Sequence record: PX393108.1
DNA from: a phage
DNA: 64,000 nucleotides
Direction: 5' to 3' (one strand)
Within the stretch, counting starts at the first letter, position 1; each line of letters begins with the position of its first letter. Positions 7,912 to 57,738 of this stretch are shown here, piece after piece. Under the pieces are notes generated by a model. It saw only the letters and a list, made by a program, of their open reading frames with translations, had not been told where the DNA came from and made no database searches. The position numbers and the translations under genes were made by a program.

Positions 7912-8191
7912 ATTGAATCACCTTCAGTTGACGTTTTAGTTCTTTTATCATCTCTTCGTTCATCGCAATATAAAGATCGCGTAAAGCAGGCTTTAGCATT
8001 CCATTTACTGGAGAACTAAATGGGCATACATAATCTTTTCCTACGAGCTTTTTAGTGAATTCCATATTACAGAACTGAAATGCCGGTTCATTGGCATAAA
8101 TTCCCCATTTGGTTGACATCATTTTATTGGCATATTCTAATGCCTGGATTTGATTCATAATTCCATCAATTTGAAACTTTTTAATATTCAT
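7895..8191 (-). CDS. Hypothetical early protein (98 aa)
   Basis: ORF packed in the same-strand operon between arn and motA. Confidence 0.55.
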   Translation of the reverse strand: MNIKKFQIDGIMNQIQALEYANKMMSTKWGIYANEPAFQFCNMEFTKKLVGKDYVCPFSSPVNGMLKPALRDLYIAMNEEMIKELKRQLKVIQFGQGN

Positions 8192-17820: not shown

Positions 17821-17860
17821 CCAATTAATTATACCACATCCTTGTGGTAAAGTAAACTAT
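17821..17860 (-). promoter_or_regulatory. T4-type early promoter (-35 GTTTACT, 17 nt, -10 TATAAT) overlapping the gene 39 stop
   Basis: Minus strand GTTTACTTTACCACAAGGATGTGGTATAAT. Confidence 0.6.
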
Positions 17861-19677
17861 TGGCTCATCCATTCTTTACGAAGGTCAGCATTATCTCCCA
17901 TGAGCATTTCAAAAAGCTCTTTCCAGTTCTCAGGAAGTTTAACAACATCATATACTGGGTTTTGAATCATCTCACGATATTCAGATTTTTCCAAAGAGCC
18001 AAGTCCCTTAATATAACGGATGCTATGTTTAGGTAGAGCATCTTTAGCACTCTCATATTCAGCGACTGTATAAAACCATTCTTGTTTTTTACCGACCTGA
18101 GCGATGATTACAGGAGTTTTGACAAAGCGAATTCTTCCTTGTTCAAACAGTTCTGGCCAATTACTAAAAAATCCGAGCAGAGAAGGATAAATGCTTCCTA
18201 GACCATCATGGTCAGCATCGGTCATAATAGCAATATTATGATAATTCAAGTTTTCGGCTTTTTCACCAAGAACTAATCCAGTGATTGCGCAAATATCAAA
18301 CAGTTCTTTGTTTTTAAGCATATCAGCATATGACATACCCCAACTGTTGAGAACTTTACCACGTAATGGATAACCACCATGAAGTTCTTTATCACGAACA
18401 TCAATAAGATACCCAATAGCCGAATCACCCTCAGTCAAGAAAAGAGTAGTGTCAGCATCTTTACCACAAAGATTCGCTTTAATATGTTTATGAACCTTAG
18501 CTTTAGAAGCCTTTTTAGCTGCTTTAGTTTCTGCTGCTTTTTCTGCCGCCAATTTACGAGCCAAAGCAGCTTCAATGATTGGCATTAAAATTGCTTCATT
18601 ATTTAAAATAGCACGTGAAATCTTTTTAGCATCAAGCTGAATATGACTACGAATTTCACCAAATGGAGAAGTCAAACGCTCTTTAGTTTGAGAATCAAAT
18701 CGCATGTTTTTCATATCACGGACAAACATAACGATAGTCAAACATTCTTTAACACGTGCTTTAGTTACATCAATTTTGAACTTACGTTTGATTTGTGGAA
18801 TAAGGTCTTCACAAATATCATCCATAACACAGTCAATGTGATGACCACCATTCTTAGTATGAATGTTATTGACGTATGTTAATTGACGAAAACCATCCGG
18901 TGAACGACCAACCGCAATAGAGCAATTTTCCTGTTCTTGAACGATAGCATGCTCATCATATTGGCGTGCATATTTCTTAAAATTACCTTGAACCTTTTTG
19001 CCATTAAAGGTAAATTGAATATCAGGATAAACTACTGCAAGTGTCTGGAGACGATCTAGTGTAATGTCAAGATAAACTTGAGATAGCTCATTAGTTTCAA
19101 ATGACATAAAATCAGGAATGAAAGTAACGCGAGTTCCTTTCCATTTTCCAGGAATAGTTTCCCATGATTTATTTTCCATGCCGTTTGAACAACGAACTAC
19201 AATATTATTTTGACCGTCGCCAGTTTCACCGACAAACATCACAGAAAAAATGTTAGTTAAACTAGAGCCAACACCGTTCATACCGCCAGTGACGCGTTCT
19301 TTGTCATCGCCGAAGTTACCACCTGCTTTTGGAATAGTCCAGGCAGCAACAGGACCAGGAATTTCTTCACCGGTAGGTGTTTTAACCATCGCCTGTGGAA
19401 TACCACGACCGTTATCTTCAACTGTTACTTGATTGTTTTTGATAGTAACATTAATTTTATTCGCGAATTTAAACTTAGTACGAATACCTTCATCTACTGA
19501 GTTATCGATAATTTCATCAATAAGCTTAACAAGACCAGGTACATACTGAACACTTTCCCATTTACCAAACAGAAAGCGCTCATGCATTTCATTAGCAGAA
19601 GAGCCAATATACATGCCGCTACGCTTTTTGATATGTTCAATATCGCTCAGAATTTTAATTTCATTCTTAATCATCAC
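17857..19677 (-). CDS. 39: DNA topoisomerase II large (ATPase) subunit gp39, uninterrupted
   Basis: 606 aa GyrB-like protein; contains in one reading frame what T4 splits into genes 39 and 60. Confidence 0.95.
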   Translation of the reverse strand: MMIKNEIKILSDIEHIKKRSGMYIGSSANEMHERFLFGKWESVQYVPGLVKLIDEIIDNSVDEGIRTKFKFANKINVTIKNNQVTVEDNGRGIPQAMVKTPTGEEIPGPVAAWTIPKAGGNFGDDKERVTGGMNGVGSSLTNIFSVMFVGETGDGQNNIVVRCSNGMENKSWETIPGKWKGTRVTFIPDFMSFETNELSQVYLDITLDRLQTLAVVYPDIQFTFNGKKVQGNFKKYARQYDEHAIVQEQENCSIAVGRSPDGFRQLTYVNNIHTKNGGHHIDCVMDDICEDLIPQIKRKFKIDVTKARVKECLTIVMFVRDMKNMRFDSQTKERLTSPFGEIRSHIQLDAKKISRAILNNEAILMPIIEAALARKLAAEKAAETKAAKKASKAKVHKHIKANLCGKDADTTLFLTEGDSAIGYLIDVRDKELHGGYPLRGKVLNSWGMSYADMLKNKELFDICAITGLVLGEKAENLNYHNIAIMTDADHDGLGSIYPSLLGFFSNWPELFEQGRIRFVKTPVIIAQVGKKQEWFYTVAEYESAKDALPKHSIRYIKGLGSLEKSEYREMIQNPVYDVVKLPENWKELFEMLMGDNADLRKEWMSQ

Positions 19678-30714: not shown

Positions 30715-30911
30715 TTTGAATGCTCTATAATTAATTTTAAGGCTTCTTCATGCACCTTACCTAATTGTATATGTCCAGTTTTAATTGTGTAAGCTTTGTG
30801 GAGCTGATTAGATAAGAGCTCACATACGAGCTCCTTGTCATAATTTTTAAATAGCTGGTCAATACGTTTCTTGTGGGCTTTCTTAAGCTGGCGTTTATTT
30901 AAACGAGCCAT
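30711..30911 (-). CDS. Hypothetical basic protein (66 aa)
   Basis: ORF with 4-nt overlap. Confidence 0.5.
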   Translation of the reverse strand: MARLNKRQLKKAHKKRIDQLFKNYDKELVCELLSNQLHKAYTIKTGHIQLGKVHEEALKLIIEHSK

Positions 30912-31429
30912 TAATAACCTCGGTCTTGACGAGCGAAGTTTTCAGCATTTTTCAGATAATAAAGTTTAAAGATTTCTTCAGCAGTAAGGCCGAGACCTTG
31001 GAACATGTTCAGAACGAAATGAAGAATATCAATCATTTCGAATTTAATTTCCAACTGGTCTTGAGGAGACAAATCAGTAATTAGAGTTTCACGACGTTCA
31101 CCATGCTGCGACTTCCAAGGCTTCCATACAGCAGATGCATCTTTTTCACCATTGCTCATACCACCAAGAGAAGTCAGAAGTTCACGGAATTCATCATCAA
31201 TGTAATCTTTCTGATTACGCAGCCAATCGACAACTTCGCCTGCAGTAGCCAAATCATCAGGATGACGGTTATATTCAGGTTTATCTTTAGCTAAACGAAC
31301 CTGCAAAGATTTCTGCATATCAAGCATAACTTGCAGTGGGTCTTTTTCGTCACCGAGAATATCCCAGTATTCATTTTGAGCTTTATCAGCGCCTTCGATC
31401 AGTTGCGAACATTCATTAAAGTAAGCCAT
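30911..31429 (-). CDS. 56: dCTP/dCDP pyrophosphatase gp56
   Basis: ORF-track frame trimmed to MAYFNECSQLIEGADKAQ… (172 aa); MazG-like; T4 gp56 is 171 aa. Confidence 0.9.
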   Translation of the reverse strand: MAYFNECSQLIEGADKAQNEYWDILGDEKDPLQVMLDMQKSLQVRLAKDKPEYNRHPDDLATAGEVVDWLRNQKDYIDDEFRELLTSLGGMSNGEKDASAVWKPWKSQHGERRETLITDLSPQDQLEIKFEMIDILHFVLNMFQGLGLTAEEIFKLYYLKNAENFARQDRGY

Positions 31430-31500
31430 TATTTTTCCTTTCAATTCATGGGTTAGTAGATTAATTATACAATAAATATATAAAGCAATAAGGAGGACAT

Positions 31501-31701
31501 ATGGTACAAAAATTAATGGCACTTGTTAATGCCATAAAAGGTAATAAAAAACGTATAGCTTTTACTATTTCTGCTATGGTAGGAATTTTACTTTGGAATT
31601 TTGTTTTATCACCAATTGCTATTGCTCATGGTGTTAATATTCCAGTAATTACTCTTGATACATTCGTAGATTTAGCATTTGCTTTAGTTGGGTTAATTTA
31701 A
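31501..31701 (+). CDS. Small membrane protein (66 aa) on the opposite strand in the 56-61 gap
   Basis: Strong Shine-Dalgarno AAGGAGG 6 nt before the ATG; two hydrophobic helices. Confidence 0.45.
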   Translation: MVQKLMALVNAIKGNKKRIAFTISAMVGILLWNFVLSPIAIAHGVNIPVITLDTFVDLAFALVGLI

Positions 31702-36162: not shown

Positions 36163-36525
36163 TTAAAAGAATTTAAATTTTTTCTTTGACCTTTTATTAA
36201 ATGCATCTTGTAGTTGCATTGTAATACATTTTTCTACATGAGGAGCTAACTCAGCTTTTCTTTCTTGGTCAAGAACAGCAAAGTCCATTACGACTTTTCC
36301 ATCAACCCAATCTAATTTTGTCACATACACAATGTGTGTAGAACCGTCTTCTAGTTTAATGACAATCTCCTGGATAACATTTTCCATGGCAGATTTAATT
36401 ATCTTAAGAGATTCATTAAAAAGACGTTCTTTTCTTTCTTCTTCCCCCTCCGAAGAGGGGGATTCATCGATAATTTCTAGATCTAAATCTAAATCATCTT
36501 TATTCATTAAATTCTTCCATATCAC
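36163..36525 (-). CDS. 40: gp40-like protein
   Basis: Small ORF between 41 and uvsX; start uncertain (overlaps uvsX 3' end). Confidence 0.55.
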   Translation of the reverse strand: MIWKNLMNKDDLDLDLEIIDESPSSEGEEERKERLFNESLKIIKSAMENVIQEIVIKLEDGSTHIVYVTKLDWVDGKVVMDFAVLDQERKAELAPHVEKCITMQLQDAFNKRSKKKFKFF

Positions 36526-37681
36526 TTAACTGATCTAGGTCAGTTTCTAAATCAGCTGCTGATTTACTTTTACTTTCTGGAGATTTAAATTTTTCAACCT
36601 TTGAGTTAATCAATTCATCAACTTCAGCTTCAACAATTTCATTACTATCAATAGCACCTAACTGATAAGCGCGTTTAATAGCATCTCGGAATGGTTGATG
36701 CTTAAATAAAGGACCCCAGAATGTAGTACAGTTGGTATCTTTTGCGCGCCAAGATTTTTCTTCGCGAATCATCTCGCCGGTTTCTTCATCAAGAAATTCA
36801 CGAGCATACCAGCCATTTTTAGGTTTTACTACAAATCCTAATTCAAGAGCCATATCTAACAATCCAGAATAAGGATCGATGCCACCGTCAAATTTAACAT
36901 CAATAAAGAATTTACTTTTTTCTTTAACTGTACGAGATTTTTCTACATTTAGAACAAATTGATACCCCTGAAGATCAGAACCATCTTTAATCTGGCGCTT
37001 ACCGATAATGAATACAGTATCAGCCGAATACATTACGCCTGTACCACCTGTCATCACGGTTTTACTAAACATTTCAATTGTTTCAATTGTATGGTTAACC
37101 GCAACGCACGGAATGTTTTTAATACTAAAATAAGGAGTAACAATACGGAATAATGACTTCAGTGATTTAGCACGAGTCATATCTGCCACAGATTTTTCAT
37201 TCAAGGCATCTTCCGTTTCTTTCTTAGAAGCCATATTACCGATTGAGTCGATGAATACAATAACTTTTTCACCGCGCTCAATAGCTTCAAGCTGATTCAC
37301 CATATCAATTTTCAGTTGTTCAACTGACTGGATTGGTGTATGAATTACACGTTCCGGGTCAACTCCCATGGATCGCAAATAAGCTGGAGTAATACCAAAT
37401 TCGCTATCATAGAATAAACAAACCGCATCAGGATATTTGTTCAAATACGCCGCAACCATAGTCAAAGACATATTTGATTTAAAGTGTTTAGAAGGACCTG
37501 CAAAAATGGTTAAACCAGACTGCATACCACCATCAATCGCGCCGGAAATAGCGATATTGAGCATTGGAATTTTTGTACGGATTACATCCTTTTCATTAAA
37601 GAATTTAGATGTAGTCAGTTCAGCAGTCATTTTAGAAGTGGAAGCTTTAATCAAACGGGATTTTAAATCTGCAATAGACAT
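36500..37681 (-). CDS. uvsX: Recombinase UvsX (RecA-like)
   Basis: 393 aa; Walker A GPSKHFKS; matches T4 UvsX. Confidence 0.95.
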   Translation of the reverse strand: MSIADLKSRLIKASTSKMTAELTTSKFFNEKDVIRTKIPMLNIAISGAIDGGMQSGLTIFAGPSKHFKSNMSLTMVAAYLNKYPDAVCLFYDSEFGITPAYLRSMGVDPERVIHTPIQSVEQLKIDMVNQLEAIERGEKVIVFIDSIGNMASKKETEDALNEKSVADMTRAKSLKSLFRIVTPYFSIKNIPCVAVNHTIETIEMFSKTVMTGGTGVMYSADTVFIIGKRQIKDGSDLQGYQFVLNVEKSRTVKEKSKFFIDVKFDGGIDPYSGLLDMALELGFVVKPKNGWYAREFLDEETGEMIREEKSWRAKDTNCTTFWGPLFKHQPFRDAIKRAYQLGAIDSNEIVEAEVDELINSKVEKFKSPESKSKSAADLETDLDQLSDMEEFNE

Positions 37682-37758
37682 TCATTTTTTCCATAGGCAT
37701 CATTATATTTTCCTCACTGGTTAAAGATAGAGTAATTATAACACAATAAATTTAGGCA

Positions 37759-38601
37759 TTAATCAACTGCTATTGGATGAATAGCATTAAACTTATGAAA
37801 CGCTTCTGATTTTTCTTTGCGCGAAACACACATGCGAAGAACCTTTAATGGCTCGTCTTCTTCACCTAATGATTTTCGTTTTTCAATATTAGAAGTTTTC
37901 CAACGAGCTTGCTCTGGAAACTCTCTATTGATTTGCTCAAGAGCTCTATTATGTTTTGAATTACTACGAATTGAACTACATCCGCCTGGAGCTTGTGCTT
38001 TTCCAGATACAACCAGATATTTGAACAAGGCCAAATGCGGATAACCTTGATTAATTAAATTGAGAAATGCATACATATCTTCGCATAAATCAATTTTTCC
38101 ATACCCAATTTGTTCTGTTGTAAGTTTTCCAAGGTCATACCATGTATTCGTGAATCCATATGAATTTTCACGATAATTACCCCAAGATGAAGTAATTTTA
38201 AAAATAGGTAGACGAGCATGACCGTGATAATACCCGCAATCCATGGCATCTTCAACGTATTGAATCAATTCATAGAACTGTTCACGAGTTAACTGATTAA
38301 TTTTATCTACGCAGCGACGATCATCTTTCTTTCGCATTGAACTCATACGAATAGTAGTATCATCGTCAATCATCCAAATTCGTTGACCTGCATACATATC
38401 AGTAATTGCTTTACGAGTACCAGCAATTCCGTTAACATCATCAGGAATAGTTATAATTTTAGCTCTAGACCCGTAAGCGTCATAATAAGCTTTTTCTTCG
38501 TGTTCACGTACTACAATATGAGGTTCATAATCAGATGGAAACATATCAAGGGCAGAAACTGCCCCTACGCGTTGATAGCTTGGAATTACGAATTGAATCA
38601 T
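37759..38601 (-). CDS. Glycosyltransferase at the beta-gt locus, probably beta-glucosyl-HMC-alpha-glucosyltransferase (T2/T6 type)
   Basis: About 280 aa with DxD-like motif (WMIDDDTT); occupies the uvsX-42 interval where T4 has the 351-aa beta-gt; start trimmed to Met overlapping the gene 42 stop (ATGA). Confidence 0.55.
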   Translation of the reverse strand: MIQFVIPSYQRVGAVSALDMFPSDYEPHIVVREHEEKAYYDAYGSRAKIITIPDDVNGIAGTRKAITDMYAGQRIWMIDDDTTIRMSSMRKKDDRRCVDKINQLTREQFYELIQYVEDAMDCGYYHGHARLPIFKITSSWGNYRENSYGFTNTWYDLGKLTTEQIGYGKIDLCEDMYAFLNLINQGYPHLALFKYLVVSGKAQAPGGCSSIRSNSKHNRALEQINREFPEQARWKTSNIEKRKSLGEEDEPLKVLRMCVSRKEKSEAFHKFNAIHPIAVD

Positions 38602-39338
38602 TTCCACTCACCGTTATAATCTTTTTTCGCAATATGGGTTTCGCCAGTTTTCCACCAATGGTCAACCAAATAAAAATGACGGGAATACACATGAAGGCTC
38701 CCGACATTCCATATAATGGAACCTGCTTTATACTGACGAGTTGAATCACCTGCATTCAAATCAGATACTAATTTATCTAGTACGTATTTTTGCCATGCAT
38801 AATCATTACGGAATCCGAAGACCACGTCATTTGAACGCATGTTAACCACTGCATTAATTTTCTTATCACGAATCAGGTACTGTACTGTATTAGTACACAT
38901 GAAATCTGACATGCCATCTTTATTGTAGTCAAATTGCATGGATGGACGAGTATAAATCATGATACCACGTCGAGAATCAGGATTTTGACCAAGTTCAGCT
39001 AAACACATATCATACTGGGCATAGTTATCTTCTGACCAGATGGCCCAACCATAATTCGAGTTAATTTCGCCTTTAGAAGATGCTACCTGCTGCCAAATCT
39101 TTGGTGTTTCACCTGGAATATCTTTAACAAACAGACTTTGAGACTTATACCATTCAAGTTCACGCTGAATGTATTCATCATTAAGAGCGCCAAAAATAAA
39201 AGGTTCATCTGCTACAAATGATGCACCAATAATTTCAATAGTTTTAACACCGGTTTTATCAATTACGAAATCTTTTTCCTTTAATGCAATTCCCAAATGA
39301 AGACGGATTTCTTCAACTGTCATAGAATCATTAATCAT
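38598..39338 (-). CDS. 42: dCMP hydroxymethylase gp42
   Basis: 246 aa; thymidylate-synthase-like fold; near-identical to T4 gp42 as I recall it. Confidence 0.95.
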   Translation of the reverse strand: MINDSMTVEEIRLHLGIALKEKDFVIDKTGVKTIEIIGASFVADEPFIFGALNDEYIQRELEWYKSQSLFVKDIPGETPKIWQQVASSKGEINSNYGWAIWSEDNYAQYDMCLAELGQNPDSRRGIMIYTRPSMQFDYNKDGMSDFMCTNTVQYLIRDKKINAVVNMRSNDVVFGFRNDYAWQKYVLDKLVSDLNAGDSTRQYKAGSIIWNVGSLHVYSRHFYLVDHWWKTGETHIAKKDYNGEWK

Positions 39339-39491
39339 TTAAACCTCAATTGATACATTCATATTTAACTTGTAACAGTAATAAACTCCACCCTATAATA
39401 AGCGTTGGAATCATACAAGGAACTGCTACGCTATAGTATATACTTATTATAATCATCAAGATTAAAAGCAATACTGCTAAAATTTTGCTTT

Positions 39492-39743
39492 TCATTCCTT
39501 CTCTCTGATGATAATTACTTGATTTTGCTGTACAGATTTTTTAGTTTCACCCGCAATTGACCAAATAAAGGTAATAAACCAACCAATAATTGACCAGTTA
39601 AACAGTAAAGATGTGAAAAAGATTCCTACTGTCGATTTTGACCCACGCATCAAGGCGATGAACCATGGAAGCATGTATATAATAATAGCCAACATGCCTG
39701 AAACTAAAACCATAAAAATTGAACCTGCTACTAAAGTTTCCAT
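39492..39743 (-). CDS. imm: Immunity protein Imm (superinfection exclusion), inner-membrane
   Basis: 83 aa with two hydrophobic helices; T4 imm size and position beside gene 43. Confidence 0.8.
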   Translation of the reverse strand: METLVAGSIFMVLVSGMLAIIIYMLPWFIALMRGSKSTVGIFFTSLLFNWSIIGWFITFIWSIAGETKKSVQQNQVIIIREKE

Positions 39744-39750
39744 ATTTTCC

Positions 39751-40131
39751 TCACTTAGTCAAATTTTTTACACATGAATTATAAGAATTCACTACATACT
39801 CCATCGGAGCATTTTTACCTGTACGCCATTGGTAATTATTAGCCCAATTAGCCCAAAGCTCAGCGCAGTAGTTTTCAATTTTTTCTTCACGCGTAATTAC
39901 ATCTGAATTACGATATGCTTGCGCAGATTCATCTGGACGAATAGCTTCGTCAAAATTCGCCTGCATCTGTTCTACTGTCTGTTTTGGAGCCTCTTTATAG
40001 CACTTGACGTTAGGATTATAAAATTTGCTTGAACAGTTTACAATTTTTCCTACATCAGATTGATTTACTACCGGTCCTTGAGCTACACAGCCAGTAAGAC
40101 CTAATGCAATAACCAAAATAGCGATTTTCAT
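39751..40131 (-). CDS. Putative lipoprotein (126 aa)
   Basis: N-terminus MKIAILVIALGLTGC (signal peptide + lipobox LTGC); several Cys. Confidence 0.55.
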   Translation of the reverse strand: MKIAILVIALGLTGCVAQGPVVNQSDVGKIVNCSSKFYNPNVKCYKEAPKQTVEQMQANFDEAIRPDESAQAYRNSDVITREEKIENYCAELWANWANNYQWRTGKNAPMEYVVNSYNSCVKNLTK

Positions 40132-40559: not shown

Positions 40560-43256
40560 TCAGCCAAACAGGAAGTCTAACGAAGCTTTTTCTTCATAGT
40601 CCATACCCGCCGATTCACACATACCCGCAAGCGGTTTAACAAACGATTTTTGGAACAAAGTTGAGTAGTCAATCCAAGATAGTACATCAGAACGAATTTC
40701 TTTTGGAAGTTCCGTACCCGATGGCCAAGCAATGCACTTGTCACCAAATGGATTTCCCTCACGTAACGGAAGAACCATTACCTTATTTCCATCCAAAATT
40801 GGAGCTACACCTAAACCGCTAACAGCTCGACGATAAGTTAGCACCCCACGAATATGGAACGGGCATTTAAACCCTGGCCAACCTTTATCGTCATATTTCG
40901 CTATATCGTTCGCGGTTTTTACTTCAGCAATAACTTTATAGTCAAGTTGACGGTATTCTTTCTCAAAGTTCTTATAGTATTCTTGGACAGACTCTTCGCC
41001 TTCCTGAAGAATACGACGAATACTTTCTTCGAGAGCTTCTTGTACTGCTTTTGGCGTTGAACTCTGCTGAGTTTCCATACCCATGATTTTTAGATGTGGT
41101 TCAGCAAATCGCTTATCTTCCATATCATAAACGTTCAGAGCATAACGTTTTTTCGCTTTCCAAAATCCACCAACACCCTTTGAACCAAGTGGAGGGCAAG
41201 AAATAGCTTCACGGTCCATATGCATCAGATGCTCGCGGTTATTCATATAATCACATAACTCACGATATGCAACATCAATCATAGGTTCCATCTTTTTCTT
41301 ACCAAACTGATTCATGAATTCAACTAAATCATTTTGTTCTTTAAAGCGGTCAAGACCTACTTTTTCAATTACTTTATCTACACAAACATATACCGAATCA
41401 GTATCACCCGCGGCGATGAAATCTTCACCATCAGTTCCACATACTTTATTCAGATATTCATTAATTTTACGAGCAATCCACTGAATACCAACTTGACCAA
41501 AAATTGTGATAGCAGTAGCATTTCGCAAATCATAGTAACGGAAATGAATATTACCAAGAGCACCATAAAGACTGTTAATAAGAATTTTACGGTTCAGCTG
41601 ATTTGTGTTAGCAAGTGTAGCTGCTTTTTCACATTCTTCGATCAGACTATTAAGAACAGATTCGGTGTAATTCGATAATTCGTTTAAGAAATCATCACTG
41701 AACTTAACATATCGTTCAACTTCTGGTTTAGTTGAACAAGACCCTGCACCTTTCATAATAATCTTTTTAATAGCTTCGGCATTCATTTCTTCAGCGAACA
41801 TTTTCTTTTTCCAATCTTTACGCTGGAAAAATACTTTAGCGATTTCCTTTGGAATGATACCTTCTTGGTGCTTATCATACATCCATCCATTCGGAGAGCA
41901 AGAATATTCATCACTTGGCTTAGGAGCTGTTCCTGCGATATATTCATGAATTGGATGAACTTTAAATTGTCCACGAATAGTCTCAGGACTAATGTTAACC
42001 TGACGAATAATGCTAGGATACAGAGACGTCAAGTCAAAACTCATAATGTATCGACGAGCAATCGGTTTAGGTTCAAATACAAATGCACCTGGAAAACTCT
42101 GTTTAACGTGCGAACCTTGTTGAGGAATAACCTTATGTTCACCTTTCAGTGAGTTAAAAATAATAGCGTCCCAAGTTTTAATAGGACTCATTACACCAGA
42201 AAAAGGCATTTTAGCGTAATAAGACATACTTAAAACTAGATCGATAAACCCACGAATTTTATCAATTGCTTGAACTGATTCTACGTCAATGATGTTATAA
42301 CTAATGTATCGTTGATGATTAGTCTCACGAAGTTTATTAATAGGACCATCGTACGGCAATTTACCTTTTTTGGTTTCGTGCTGAGCAACTGATTCCAAAG
42401 AGAATGATGGCAAATTAGTAAATGCGAATTTCTTGTATAAATCTAAATAATCAAGAATAGATACGCCATCAATAGAATAAATTTCTTTGCTACCGTACAT
42501 ATTTTGAATTAGTTTAGATTTTACTCGACCGATTGGGGAGAAGCGTTTCATACTGCGTTCACCGAGAACCATTTTAACGCGATTCATGATATACGGAACG
42601 TCAAATCCCTCAATATTCCAACCGGTAAAAATAGCAGGTCGTTTCTGTTCCCAGAGATTAATATATTCCATGAGCATATCACGCTCATTATCGAATGGCA
42701 TATAAATTACTCGGTCAAGAATTTCTTGAGGAACTTCATCACCACCTTCACAGTCAAGCTTAGCAGCTAACTTTGCATCCCATTTTGATACTGAACCGTA
42801 CATTGAATTCAACAAATCAAAGACGTAAAAACGGTCGTCAATTGAATCATAATGAGTGATAGCATCAATTTCATATTCTGCTTTCATTGGGTCAGGAAAT
42901 TTATCACCAGTAACCTCAATGTCACAGTTAGCTACACGAACAAATTTTCGGTCATAAACAATTTCTGAACCATATGTATCACTGATATAAGCGAGTTTAA
43001 AATCGTTCATACCGAGAGCTTCGAGACCGATGTCTTCCATTCGTTTCATCCAATCTCGTGCATCTTTCATTGATGGAAATTTTTGAGGAGCGCAATTTTT
43101 ACCGTAAATGTCTTTGTACTTTGACTCTTCCTTACAATGCCTAAACATAGTCGGAAGATATTCTACTTCACGAGTACGTTCCTTTCCGTTTTCATCAATA
43201 TAACGCTCAACAATATTATTTCCGACTGTTTCGATAGAGATATAAAATTCTTTCAT
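40560..43256 (-). CDS. 43: DNA polymerase gp43 (family B)
   Basis: 898 aa; exonuclease and polymerase motifs (…YGDTDS…); matches T4 gp43 length. Confidence 0.97.
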   Translation of the reverse strand: MKEFYISIETVGNNIVERYIDENGKERTREVEYLPTMFRHCKEESKYKDIYGKNCAPQKFPSMKDARDWMKRMEDIGLEALGMNDFKLAYISDTYGSEIVYDRKFVRVANCDIEVTGDKFPDPMKAEYEIDAITHYDSIDDRFYVFDLLNSMYGSVSKWDAKLAAKLDCEGGDEVPQEILDRVIYMPFDNERDMLMEYINLWEQKRPAIFTGWNIEGFDVPYIMNRVKMVLGERSMKRFSPIGRVKSKLIQNMYGSKEIYSIDGVSILDYLDLYKKFAFTNLPSFSLESVAQHETKKGKLPYDGPINKLRETNHQRYISYNIIDVESVQAIDKIRGFIDLVLSMSYYAKMPFSGVMSPIKTWDAIIFNSLKGEHKVIPQQGSHVKQSFPGAFVFEPKPIARRYIMSFDLTSLYPSIIRQVNISPETIRGQFKVHPIHEYIAGTAPKPSDEYSCSPNGWMYDKHQEGIIPKEIAKVFFQRKDWKKKMFAEEMNAEAIKKIIMKGAGSCSTKPEVERYVKFSDDFLNELSNYTESVLNSLIEECEKAATLANTNQLNRKILINSLYGALGNIHFRYYDLRNATAITIFGQVGIQWIARKINEYLNKVCGTDGEDFIAAGDTDSVYVCVDKVIEKVGLDRFKEQNDLVEFMNQFGKKKMEPMIDVAYRELCDYMNNREHLMHMDREAISCPPLGSKGVGGFWKAKKRYALNVYDMEDKRFAEPHLKIMGMETQQSSTPKAVQEALEESIRRILQEGEESVQEYYKNFEKEYRQLDYKVIAEVKTANDIAKYDDKGWPGFKCPFHIRGVLTYRRAVSGLGVAPILDGNKVMVLPLREGNPFGDKCIAWPSGTELPKEIRSDVLSWIDYSTLFQKSFVKPLAGMCESAGMDYEEKASLDFLFG

Positions 43257-48571: not shown

Positions 48572-48831
48572 AAAAGATTCCTTTTAATGTATCTTTTAGA
48601 CCATTCTATCATATCATCATAATCTAAAAAGTATTCATCAAATTCAGCCATGCAAACAACACCTTGTGCTGCTTTTGATGTGATATAAATTATTCCAACA
48701 TATCTAGAATCTTCTTCGGTGTAATCAATATTTGCTATGAATTCATCGTTAATGTCAAATGTCGAAAACTTCACAGTATGCATCCTTAATACAAGATACA
48801 GCCATATCTTGTAATGATTTAGGTGTGTCAT
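48568..48831 (-). CDS. Hypothetical protein (87 aa)
   Basis: ORF. Confidence 0.5.
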   Translation of the reverse strand: MTHLNHYKIWLYLVLRMHTVKFSTFDINDEFIANIDYTEEDSRYVGIIYITSKAAQGVVCMAEFDEYFLDYDDMIEWSKRYIKRNLL

Positions 48832-49018
48832 TATCTAAAATGTTGAAGTTAAAAGATACAGCCCAGTCAGTGCAGACCGTGACCTTTTTAATACAATTAT
48901 CTTCAACCTCTAGCGGTTCAAACCAATATTCAATAATTTCTTTATGCCCAATATCATCTTTTACTTCGCATTCAAAATGCTGACTCATCATAGCATTTTT
49001 AAATTCATCAAAAGTCAT
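48755..49018 (-). CDS. Hypothetical protein (87 aa)
   Basis: ORF; overlaps the downstream ORF in another frame, start uncertain. Confidence 0.45.
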   Translation of the reverse strand: MTFDEFKNAMMSQHFECEVKDDIGHKEIIEYWFEPLEVEDNCIKKVTVCTDWAVSFNFNILDNDTPKSLQDMAVSCIKDAYCEVFDI

Positions 49019-50210: not shown

Positions 50211-51413
50211 TTATTTTGTAATAATGTCAAACTGCTCTTTAAAGCAGAAGCTTGAATCTTGATGCTGATACAAAAATTCATAAGCTTTTTCACGTTCACG
50301 GTCATAAAGAGCTCGGTCAGATGACAGTTCTTTAATACGTTCAAATGTTGATTCCATGTCATTTTCATCAAACCAAACGATACCGCTATCATGAGAAATT
50401 AACGGAGTATTATCAACACGGAATTTTAAATTTTCGCCAGTAGATTTCCAAAATACTGGAATTGTTCCACATGCACCAAGCTCGAGATGAGTATATTCTA
50501 AAGAACGTTGTAGATATTTTTTATCTAATTTACTCAGCTGATAACCAAATCCGGATTTACTCATGCGTTCAAGCATTTCGCTATTTACATAACGGTCGAG
50601 AATTTGCGTTGGCAAATTAGGAGCAATTTTAATTTGGTCTACTTGATGAAGACGATAATACTCGTATGGAATTCCTTTTTCTTTAATAGGAATGAACGCT
50701 GGAGAACGTTCCAGACCTTCCATAATAGTACTTAGTCCTGCAGGTTTAAGATGTTTTTCGTGAAAATCAAACATCTGATAAAAACCTTTCCATGTAGTCG
50801 TACGACCAATCCAACGGTTGATATTCATGTTAATTTCAGAAACATCTTTCCAGTAGGTTGATCGAACCTTCGCAATATCCATAGGAGGCTGAAAGTTATA
50901 TACGGTCGGTGCTTCTTCAATATCATCAAACAAAGAAACTGTTTCTGGATACCATTCTTTCATCAAAACTTTATTAAAGTCACCATTGTCAGAATGACTA
51001 AAAATAACATCAGCTCGACGAACAGTTTCTTCTAATCCCAAATTTCGGCGCAAAGAAAGAGAAGAATGGTCATGTTGATAAACTACAACACGAACCGAAG
51101 GTTTAATGTTATCAATAATTTTTTTATAGTTATTAATTGTGTCTTCTTCAACTGAAGTAGCAGGAACTGAATTGATAATTAGAATATCACAATCATTTAC
51201 CAGCTTAAGTGTTTTATCGTATTCTTTTGCCAATAAAACCGGAATTGAAAATGACTTATAATCATGTGCGCAATTACGAGTAAATGATTTATCTTTAGCA
51301 TAAACCAAAGTTACTTCATGACCATTTTTAATAAACCAATCACGTTGCTCAAGAGAAAATTTAGTTACACCACAACCTTCAAGACCTCGAGCCATAAAAA
51401 TACATACTTTCAT
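50211..51413 (-). CDS. agt: DNA alpha-glucosyltransferase
   Basis: 400 aa; position between 47 and 55; T4 a-gt length. Confidence 0.85.
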   Translation of the reverse strand: MKVCIFMARGLEGCGVTKFSLEQRDWFIKNGHEVTLVYAKDKSFTRNCAHDYKSFSIPVLLAKEYDKTLKLVNDCDILIINSVPATSVEEDTINNYKKIIDNIKPSVRVVVYQHDHSSLSLRRNLGLEETVRRADVIFSHSDNGDFNKVLMKEWYPETVSLFDDIEEAPTVYNFQPPMDIAKVRSTYWKDVSEINMNINRWIGRTTTWKGFYQMFDFHEKHLKPAGLSTIMEGLERSPAFIPIKEKGIPYEYYRLHQVDQIKIAPNLPTQILDRYVNSEMLERMSKSGFGYQLSKLDKKYLQRSLEYTHLELGACGTIPVFWKSTGENLKFRVDNTPLISHDSGIVWFDENDMESTFERIKELSSDRALYDREREKAYEFLYQHQDSSFCFKEQFDIITK

Positions 51414-55453: not shown

Positions 55454-55924
55454 TTAATCATGTTTCCACACCCCATCGGTATTTGACCAAAGTCGCTGAT
55501 TATCTGAACCTCGCCACAGCTTTTTGGTCGGAAGATTTTTCTCATACTTCCCATCAATAATAACATCAACATATTTAAGCATTTCTAGTTGTTTAATATC
55601 TTCAAACTTATATCCTGTCCACAACCAAATGCTTTTATTCGGATAAAGATTTTTTACTGTTTGAACAATGCAATGAACAACATCTCGGTTATCAGGATAA
55701 AGAGGGTCTCCTCCAGTTATAGTTAATCCTTCTATATAATCATTATTCAAACATTCAATTAATTGTTCTAGTGTTTCACCAGTGAATGGAACGCCATTTC
55801 TAGCATTCCACGTTGATTTATTATAACACCCTTCGCATTTATGCAAACAACCTGTAACGAAAAGAACGACCCTGCATCCAGGGCCATTCACAAAATCACA
55901 GGGATAAAATCTATCGTAATTCAT
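55454..55924 (-). CDS. nrdG: Anaerobic ribonucleotide reductase activating protein NrdG (radical SAM)
   Basis: 156 aa; CxxxCxxC motif (CLHKCEGCYNK). Confidence 0.9.
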   Translation of the reverse strand: MNYDRFYPCDFVNGPGCRVVLFVTGCLHKCEGCYNKSTWNARNGVPFTGETLEQLIECLNNDYIEGLTITGGDPLYPDNRDVVHCIVQTVKNLYPNKSIWLWTGYKFEDIKQLEMLKYVDVIIDGKYEKNLPTKKLWRGSDNQRLWSNTDGVWKHD

Positions 55925-57738
55925 TGGTGTTTAACCCTATGCATGATTTCTTTATTTTTGCCGAGATTAAATCCGCGTTCATTCGGATTTCCCAAATAAC
56001 CACAAGTTCTTCTTATTGTGTTCATCTTTTTAGGATCAGTTTCTCCACAAATAGAACAAACAAATCCGTTTTCAGTAGGAGTCATTTCATGGGTACTTCC
56101 ACACGTAAAACATTTATCTACTGGCATGTTAACGCCAAAATAATCTAAATGTTGCGCAGCATAATCCCATACAGCCTCAAGACCTTTTAGGTTATTTTTC
56201 ATATCAGGAAGTTCAACATAAGAAATGTGACCACCTGTCGCAATGAAATGATATGGTGCTTCACGAGAAATCTTTTCAAACGGAGTGATATTTTCTTCTA
56301 CTGAAACATGGAAACTGTTAGTGTACCAGCCTTTATCAGTAACATCTTTTACACTTCCATATTTTTCGGTATCAAGTTTACAGAAGCGATAGCACAGGTT
56401 TTCAGCAGGTGTAGAATACAAGCTAAAAGCAAAACCAGTTCTTTCAGTCCACTGCTTAAGACGAGCATTCATTTTAGTTAAAATTTCCTGTCCAATATCA
56501 CGACCGACAAGAATATTCAATTCGTGAATACCAATGTATCCTAAGGACACTGAACTTCTACCGTTTTTAAATAACTCAATTATATCGTCATCAGGTTTAA
56601 GACGAACCCCGAATGCACCTTCTTGGTAAAGAATAGGAGCAACAGTAGCTTTAACTCCTTTTAAGGAACTAATTCTACACATCAATGCTTCAAAACATAA
56701 ATCCATTCTCTCATTGAACAATTCGGCAAATTTCTGTTCATTGAACTGTGTTCCAATATAAGAATCTAGTGCAATGCGAGGAAGATTCAGTGTTACAACA
56801 CCAAGATTATTACGTCCATCAAGAATTTCATTACCAGTCGAATCTTTCCATACACCCAAGAAACTACGACAACCCATTGGAGAAACAGGAATAGATGAAC
56901 CGGTGATAGCTTTATTGTTCTTAGCCGAAATGATGTCAGGATACATTCTTTTACTTGCACATTCTAGAGCAAGCTGCTTAATATCATAGTTCGGATCGTC
57001 TTTATAAAGATTAACACCTTCTTCAACGAACATAACAAGCTTAGGGAAAATAGGAGTTATCCCATCACGACCAAGGCCTTTAATACGATTTTTCAGAATT
57101 GCTTTCTGAATCATTCGTTCAGTCCAGTCAGTTCCCGTACCAAATGTAATTGTTACAAAAGGCGTTTGTCCGTTTGAACTAAAGAGAGTATTTACTTCGT
57201 ATTCATAAGCTTGGAATGCATCGTATACATCTTTTTCTGTTTTAGATTGGGCATAATTCAACGCATCAGCGATTTGCCATTTTTCTGCGTCCTCAATATG
57301 TTTTGCATAGGTGCGTTTAACATAAGGAGAAAGTACTTTGTCTACATTCGCAAAAGTCGTTCCACCATATTGATGGGAAGCAACCTGTGCAGTAATTTGC
57401 GCCATAATTGCAGTAGCAACACCGATTGATTTAGGAGTTTCAATCTGTGCATTACCGAGCTTAAATCCGTTCTCAAGCATTCCTTTTAAATCTACTAAAC
57501 AGCAATTAGTAAATGGAAGAGCAGGGGAATAATCAATATCATGGAAATGAATAATTCCGCTTTCATGCGCTTTCATAATAAAAGACGGGACCATATTTTT
57601 GGCAATGTGTTTAGACACAATACCAGCCATAAGGTCCCGTTGAGTTGGAAAAACACGAGAATCTTTATTAGCATTCTCGTTTAAAAGGTCTTTATTAGTT
57701 TTATGAATCAATCCTTCAATTTCTTTTTCAATTGTCAT
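55921..57738 (-). CDS. nrdD: Anaerobic ribonucleoside-triphosphate reductase NrdD, intron-less
   Basis: 605 aa; C-terminal zinc ribbon and glycyl-radical motif (RRTCGYLG); continuous reading frame. Confidence 0.95.
   Translation of the reverse strand: MTIEKEIEGLIHKTNKDLLNENANKDSRVFPTQRDLMAGIVSKHIAKNMVPSFIMKAHESGIIHFHDIDYSPALPFTNCCLVDLKGMLENGFKLGNAQIETPKSIGVATAIMAQITAQVASHQYGGTTFANVDKVLSPYVKRTYAKHIEDAEKWQIADALNYAQSKTEKDVYDAFQAYEYEVNTLFSSNGQTPFVTITFGTGTDWTERMIQKAILKNRIKGLGRDGITPIFPKLVMFVEEGVNLYKDDPNYDIKQLALECASKRMYPDIISAKNNKAITGSSIPVSPMGCRSFLGVWKDSTGNEILDGRNNLGVVTLNLPRIALDSYIGTQFNEQKFAELFNERMDLCFEALMCRISSLKGVKATVAPILYQEGAFGVRLKPDDDIIELFKNGRSSVSLGYIGIHELNILVGRDIGQEILTKMNARLKQWTERTGFAFSLYSTPAENLCYRFCKLDTEKYGSVKDVTDKGWYTNSFHVSVEENITPFEKISREAPYHFIATGGHISYVELPDMKNNLKGLEAVWDYAAQHLDYFGVNMPVDKCFTCGSTHEMTPTENGFVCSICGETDPKKMNTIRRTCGYLGNPNERGFNLGKNKEIMHRVKHQ

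Follow-up and report, generated by a model that had tools for sequence, protein, structure and literature searches.

A very probable T2/T6-type ba-gt gene, for a second glucose on alpha-glucosyl-hmC, between uvsX and gene 42 of a Tequatrovirus

In phage T4, the genomic slot between uvsX and gene 42 is taken up by segA and the gene for a 351-aa beta-glucosyltransferase (beta-gt). The 64-kb stretch of phage DNA analyzed here (the window) has an ORF of 280 aa in that slot, which raises the question of what its product does to the phage DNA and how thoroughly it does it. The first-pass annotation, made from the sequence, had noted an ORF of ~280 aa in this slot and had proposed it as a candidate beta-alpha-glucosyltransferase (ba-gt). 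The answer matters because the glucosyltransferase set of a T-even phage predicts its DNA chemistry, which in turn predicts its behavior towards modification-dependent defenses.

The locus and the ba-gt family

The ORF begins with ATG and ends with a stop codon at 37759..37761 (Table 1); an alternative in-frame GTG start at 38607, upstream of the ATG, would extend the product by two residues to 282 aa. The ATG overlaps the TGA of gene 42 as ATGA (the minus strand reads ...TGG AAA TGA TT...). Such an overlap is the usual T-even layout for translationally coupled genes, and coupling of this kind is probable for gene 42 and ba-gt. The spacer between uvsX and ba-gt is just 77 nt (37682-37758), whereas T4 has the GIY-YIG homing endonuclease gene segA at that junction; tblastn with T4 segA found no homologue in the whole 64-kb window, with no match below E = 2.3. 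A scan of 37400..39800 for promoter and terminator consensus sequences returned counts equal to those of shuffled controls. The ORF call and the Pfam assignments of both neighbors bear out the position and approximate length given in the first-pass annotation. The corresponding 843-nt coding sequence is annotated in related phages. Megablast with the locus returned 597 phage records and tblastn with the protein returned 690, and an ORF with homologues in that many records is no chance reading frame.

Table 1. Positions of the ba-gt gene, its motifs, and the other genes discussed (coordinates of the 64-kb window)
Feature	Position	Strand	Basis or remark
ba-gt (ggt, TAGT), beta-glucosyl-HMC-alpha-glucosyltransferase, 280 aa	37759..38601	-	PHROG 842; PF20691; AlphaFold2 model
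R11 codon (CGC), N-terminal IPSYQR motif	38569..38571	-	Family-invariant; His only in T2/SV76 records
D79-D80-D81, predicted DxD-type metal and nucleotide-sugar binding motif	38359..38367	-	Invariant; after strand E74-78
E174-D175 "ED" motif, candidate catalytic base	38077..38082	-	Conservation; weak alignment with eD of 9jma
Gene 42, dCMP hydroxymethylase, upstream neighbor	38598..39338	-	Pfam Thymidylat_synt; PHROG 160; annotated gene 42 in PP01 and T2
uvsX recombinase, downstream neighbor	36500..37681	-	Pfam T4_UVSX_C and RecA
alpha-gt, DNA alpha-glucosyltransferase, 400 aa	50211..51413	-	Pfam AGT PF11440; PHROG 2888
Gene 56, dCTPase/dUTPase	30911..31429	-	PHROG 173 NTP pyrophosphohydrolase, E = 1.5e-46; syntenic with PP01 gene 56
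DNA polymerase gp43	40560..43256		imm and imm.1 lie between gene 42 and gp43

The ORF product matched PHROG 842, "beta-glucosyl-HMC-alpha-glucosyltransferase," over its whole length (E = 1e-88). It also matched Pfam PF20691, the TET-associated glycosyltransferase (TAGT) family, with 38.8 bits (E = 1.3e-9; residues 3-207 against profile positions 2-205 of 205), above the gathering score of 27.5 bits for this model. The modest E value reflects the position of the T-even clade as a divergent branch of TAGT. No NCBIfam model covers the protein. Matches by tblastn came mainly from Tequatroviruses of Escherichia, Shigella, Yersinia, and Salmonella at identities of at least 95%, and a second cluster of homologues, in Klebsiella and Enterobacter phages, had ~65% identity. 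Where the gene is annotated, most records say beta-glucosyl-HMC-alpha-glucosyltransferase or "glucosyl transferase," and some loosely say "b-gt."

Over 24 kb, the best relatives were the Shigella phages SH-1 and SH-2 together with ime09 and PP01 (97 to 98% nucleotide identity), which places the window phage among the T2/T6-type Tequatroviruses. T2, T6, PP01, BGP, EL, Geo, CP, and Solly all share the gene order uvsX, ba-gt, 42, imm, 43. With the window protein as the reference, the PBM-1 protein was 100% identical, PP01 99.3%, Solly and CP 98.6 to 98.9%, and T6 97.5% over the full 280 aa, and T2 shared 275 of the 280 residues (98.2%). Taken together, the PHROG 842 and PF20691 matches, the ~98% identity to the annotated T2 and T6 proteins, the genomic slot, and the GT-A model described below support the candidate identity, and the ORF is very probably a T2/T6-type ba-gt (also called ggt or TAGT) that extends alpha-glucosyl-hmC to gentiobiosyl-hmC. 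As such it is an intact member of a known, experimentally characterized, and very common family. The gene itself is not new: ba-gt is annotated in hundreds of phage records, and T6 deletion mutants have been characterized.

Elsewhere in the window, gene 39 (topoisomerase large subunit; 17857-19677) forms one uninterrupted ORF of ~605 aa, judging by ORF length and the PP01 annotation; this matches PP01 and phages of the T2/T6 type, unlike the split gene 39 and gene 60 of T4. The nrdG gene adjoins nrdD directly (55454-57738), with no segH homing endonuclease between them, as in PP01, and a 285-aa extra ORF that lies between genes 46 and 47 of PP01 is missing here (48572-49014). The nrdG/nrdD and 46/47 differences are typical of the presence or absence of mobile elements among close relatives.

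Fold, conserved residues, and relation to T4 beta-gt

A profile search yielded 50 homologues with identities as low as ~15%, nearly all with PF20691, from which a 47-sequence alignment was made. Five residues (R11, R63, D79, D80, and D81) were invariant in 47/47 homologues, and I6, P7, R32, Y39, T62, and R212 were nearly invariant. Among the closer relatives, D175 was invariant and E174, G206, G207, S209, and R212 were invariant or nearly so. The window allele keeps every family-invariant residue. The DxD-type motif mentioned in the first-pass annotation is thus found as D79-D80-D81. By analogy with what is generally known of GT2 enzymes, E174 or D175 is a candidate for the base of an inverting GT-A enzyme.

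An AlphaFold2 model built on the homologue alignment (mean pLDDT of 93.4; pTM of 0.91) is a single alpha/beta domain with a Rossmann-like alpha/beta/alpha arrangement, in which the DDD motif directly follows strand 4 (E74-78). Foldseek comparison of the model with the PDB returned mostly GT-A structures of the GT2 type: WrtF, AvpGT, TarP, K4CP (chondroitin polymerase), RmlT, TarS, and SpsA. The best matches had E values of ~4e-6 to 3e-5 and TM scores of ~0.45 to 0.53, and weaker ones were sugar-nucleotidyltransferases of the same superfold. At the sequence level, a profile search against the PDB gave one marginal match, to the GT2-type entries 9jma/9jn3 (E = 0.047), in whose marginal alignment IPSYkR pairs with IPTYNR, DDD with DDD, and eD with eD; a single-sequence search of PDB sequences returned only noise. 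There appears to be no solved structure for the ba-gt family. The GT-A, GT2-like placement of our model agrees with AlphaFold3 modeling of the T6 TAGT, which placed it in a sister group of GT2 within the GT-A superfamily, with alpha-GT and beta-GT in GT-B (PMC13216743). With UDP-alpha-D-glucose as donor and a beta linkage in the product, the reaction would have to invert the anomeric configuration, which would presumably fit a GT2-like enzyme that uses a DxD-bound metal together with a carboxylate base.

These results also bear on whether the ORF might encode a diverged T4-type beta-glucosyltransferase (GT-B fold, CAZy GT63). All that points to such an enzyme is genome position and the loose "b-gt" label in some records. 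BLASTP of the ba-gt protein against T4 beta-gt found nothing (best E = 3.3), the Pfam beta-gt model had no match in the ORF protein, and tblastn with T4 beta-gt found no homologue in the 64-kb window, the part of the genome in view (best E = 2.3). Close relatives such as PP01 and T2 are described as being without a T4-type beta-gt (PMC13216743). The description of the protein as unrelated looking to T4 beta-gt was therefore apt, and full-length homology to T4 beta-gt, which the first-pass annotation had named as evidence against its proposal, was detected by neither BLASTP nor tblastn. Given also a model with a single GT-A domain rather than the two domains of GT-B, we rejected a diverged T4-type enzyme as having almost no likelihood.

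The acceptor and the extent of di-glucosylation

In the pathway that we propose for a T2/T6-type ba-gt, gene 42 would make hm-dCMP and gene 56 would keep unmodified cytosine out, such that all cytosines of the phage DNA would be 5-hydroxymethylcytosine (hmC). Alpha-gt would then add an alpha-linked glucose to about three quarters of the hmC, and ba-gt, using UDP-glucose of the host, would link a second glucose beta-1,6 to the first, yielding gentiobiosyl-hmC. The 64-kb window contains full-length copies of alpha-gt, gene 42, and gene 56. Alpha-gt, which the first-pass annotation had located correctly, matched Pfam AGT along the entire profile (1-355 of 355; E = 2.4e-236) and the PHROG alpha-glucosyltransferase family with E = 3.8e-222. 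Our own analysis covers which gene this is, its fold and motifs, its synteny, and the occurrence of these three genes; the chemistry and the phenotype of the T6 knockout are taken from the literature. There, ba-gt/TAGT is reported to add a beta-1,6-linked glucose to alpha-glucosyl-hmC (PMC6024577, PMC13216743), and the formation of gentiobiosyl-hmC in T2 and T6 by alpha-gt and a beta-1,6 transferase, which the first-pass annotation had invoked, accords with published work (PMC6024577, PMC11078745).

On the minus strand, the alpha-gt gene contains an A7 run (51119-51125) and an A6 run (50517-50522), and the gene is in frame. Homopolymer runs of at least six nucleotides have been described as slippage-prone "contingency loci," one of which, in T2 agt, toggles glucosylation (bioRxiv 10.1101/2025.10.21.683753).

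Occupation of the beta-gt slot could also mean that ba-gt glucosylates bare hmC directly and functionally replaces T4 beta-gt. A large number of TAGT homologues come from phages that have neither alpha-GT nor beta-GT, or are encoded beside TET, and these presumably act on hmC itself (PMC13216743). Against such an activity here, nucleoside analysis by HPLC/MS of 10 new Tequatroviruses, all of which encode alpha-GT and a TAGT syntenic with T4 beta-GT, detected beta-glucosyl-hmC in none (PMC13390438). Moreover, ~25% of the hmC is left bare in T2 and T6, and T6 delta-ba-gt keeps ~75% alpha-glucosyl-hmC (PMC11078745); these observations point to the first glucose as the acceptor. The DNA of T6 delta-ba-gt contains only alpha-glucosyl-hmC (PMC11078745; bioRxiv 10.64898/2026.02.25.707755). 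We consider direct glucosylation of bare hmC by the window enzyme very improbable and continue with alpha-glucosyl-hmC as the acceptor.

How much of the alpha-glucosyl-hmC is extended differs strongly among phages. Gentiobiosyl-hmC makes up 5% of the hmC in T2 and 72% in T6, formed by homologous ba-gt enzymes (PMC6024577), and the low level of ~5% in T2 is given elsewhere as well (PMC11078745). Among the Tequatroviruses studied by HPLC/MS, the DNA of Solly and CP consists of approximately one-third hmC and two-thirds gentiobiosyl-hmC, and a second Durham group (iii) has hmC, alpha-glucosyl-hmC, and gentiobiosyl-hmC at ~1:2:2 (PMC13390438). This range of 5% to 72% is seen among phages with 98% identical enzymes.

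We therefore compared the window allele with those of the characterized phages. Three substitutions, S23T, K92R, and I101V, are all that separate the Solly protein from the window protein, and CP has the same three plus V30A. The window residues S23, K92, and I101 differ from all characterized alleles compared. BGP, EL, and Geo, of the 1:2:2 group, share I50V, M89I, R95K, C97R, A202S, and Q203H, all six of which are absent from the window protein. Three independent T2 records agree in an allele that is the Solly allele with two changes, R11H and P251S; the window protein retains R11 and P251 and thus has neither of the T2-specific changes. We surveyed alleles of codon 11 in the GenBank phage collection by megablast with a 30-mer, requiring a 28-base exact seed that spans the codon. 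His11 (CAT) occurred in eight records, seven of T2 and one of SV76 (a T2-sized genome), compared with 216 records with Arg11 in the same 30-mer context (CGC in 111 and CGT in 105). Exact-pattern scans of IMG/VR found His11 in 0 contigs and Arg11 in 3, numbers too small to inform.

Since the window allele keeps R11 and P251 and is nearest to those of Solly and CP, we predict that the window phage is heavily di-glucosylated, like T6 and Solly and unlike T2, the level of activity being judged from the sequence. It might instead have the right enzyme in a weak form, as in T2, such that its DNA would be essentially mono-alpha-glucosylated with a few percent gentiobiosyl-hmC. The T2 protein is, after all, 98% identical, yet T2 is only ~5% gentiobiosylated (PMC6024577, PMC11078745), and Durham group iii is intermediate at ~1:2:2 (PMC13390438). 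However, both substitutions that separate T2 from Solly and CP are missing from the window, R11 is invariant in the 47 homologues with His11 limited to T2 and SV76, and the group iii substitutions are missing too, which makes a weak window enzyme unlikely. Under the preferred reading of an active ba-gt, a further idea, which we put forward tentatively and as somewhat short of probable, is that T2 carries a hypomorphic ba-gt allele (R11H/P251S) and that phages with R11 and P251, as here, would be fully gentiobiosylating. If true, the hypomorphic T2 allele would be an apparently unreported explanation for a 60-year-old observation, the 5% of T2 versus the 72% of T6. The research value of the locus lies in this hypothesis on T2 R11H and low di-glucosylation; for the window itself, the result is a routine annotation and marks the phage as T6-like, not T4-like.

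T6 is the reference gentiobiosyl phage, and the two public T6 genome records differ in ba-gt both from each other and from the consensus, each carrying a lesion. In MH550421, codon 10 is changed from CAG to TAG (amber; 7951-7953 of the retrieved segment), and the coding sequence is annotated from Met20. In AP018814 (4135-4974 of the retrieved segment), one GAT has been lost in frame from GATGATGAT, which encodes the invariant DDD, leaving DD. The two lesions may be stock-specific mutations or sequencing errors; that they differ hints that laboratory stocks may repeatedly lose ba-gt function. The window ba-gt has neither lesion.

The interval between genes 56 and 61 (31430-31697) lacks dam (DNA adenine methyltransferase) in the window, and T6 and PP01 agree with it in this; T2 and the Durham 1:2:2 phage BGP have dam and one extra ORF there. 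The presence of dam tracks the lower-gentiobiosyl group, as a correlation only (PMC13390438).

With respect to host defenses, gentiobiosyl-hmC in vitro withstands both Brig1, a glycosylase, and BapA, a deglucosylase, but is still cut by GmrSD/BrxU-type enzymes (PMC11078745, bioRxiv 10.64898/2026.02.25.707755, PMC13390438, PMC13216743). The DNA of T6 delta-ba-gt becomes a substrate of both Brig1 glycosylase and BapA (PMC11078745; bioRxiv 10.64898/2026.02.25.707755).

Comparison with known glucosyltransferases

The window gene resembles ba-gt of T2 and T6 in protein identity (97.5 to 98.2%), in its slot between gene 42 and uvsX, in the ATGA overlap, and in having alpha-gt as a partner. The T2 and T6 ba-gt genes were reportedly cloned by Winkler & Rueger in 1993 (NAR 21:1500, cited in PMC11946311). 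Relative to T2, the window protein has R11 instead of H11 and P251 instead of S251, in addition to S23, K92, and I101, and Y40, D55, and R106 set it apart from the T6 records. The TAGT of Solly and CP (PMC13390438) is alike in synteny and differs by three conservative substitutions, with V30A in addition in CP.

Within the broader PF20691 family, the match extends over the whole profile, and R11, R63, and DDD are invariant down to ~15% identity. The window enzyme is accompanied by no TET/JBP dioxygenase, the hmC being made by gene 42 at the nucleotide level, and its predicted acceptor is not the hydroxymethyl group of the base but a sugar that the base already carries. Bacterial GT2 transferases of the GT-A fold (TarP, TarS, SpsA, K4CP, and AvpGT) share the fold and the P-x-Y-x-R, DDD, and ED motifs but have only 10 to 15% sequence identity, and the acceptor here is borne on DNA.

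T4 beta-gt (PF09198) occupies the same genomic slot, uses the same donor, UDP-glucose, has the same beta outcome, and likewise acts on phage DNA after replication. It differs in having no sequence similarity to ba-gt and in its fold, which is GT-B as opposed to GT-A here (PMC13216743). The acceptors differ as well: the hydroxymethyl group of hmC for T4 beta-gt and the glucose O6 of alpha-glucosyl-hmC for ba-gt. Among 753 surveyed phage genomes, the common state was a TAGT together with either alpha-GT or beta-GT, and the T4-style pair of alpha-GT and beta-GT was found in only 6 genomes (PMC13216743). The combination of alpha-gt and TAGT seen in the window is thus the ordinary arrangement for T4-like coliphages, to which T4 is the exception.
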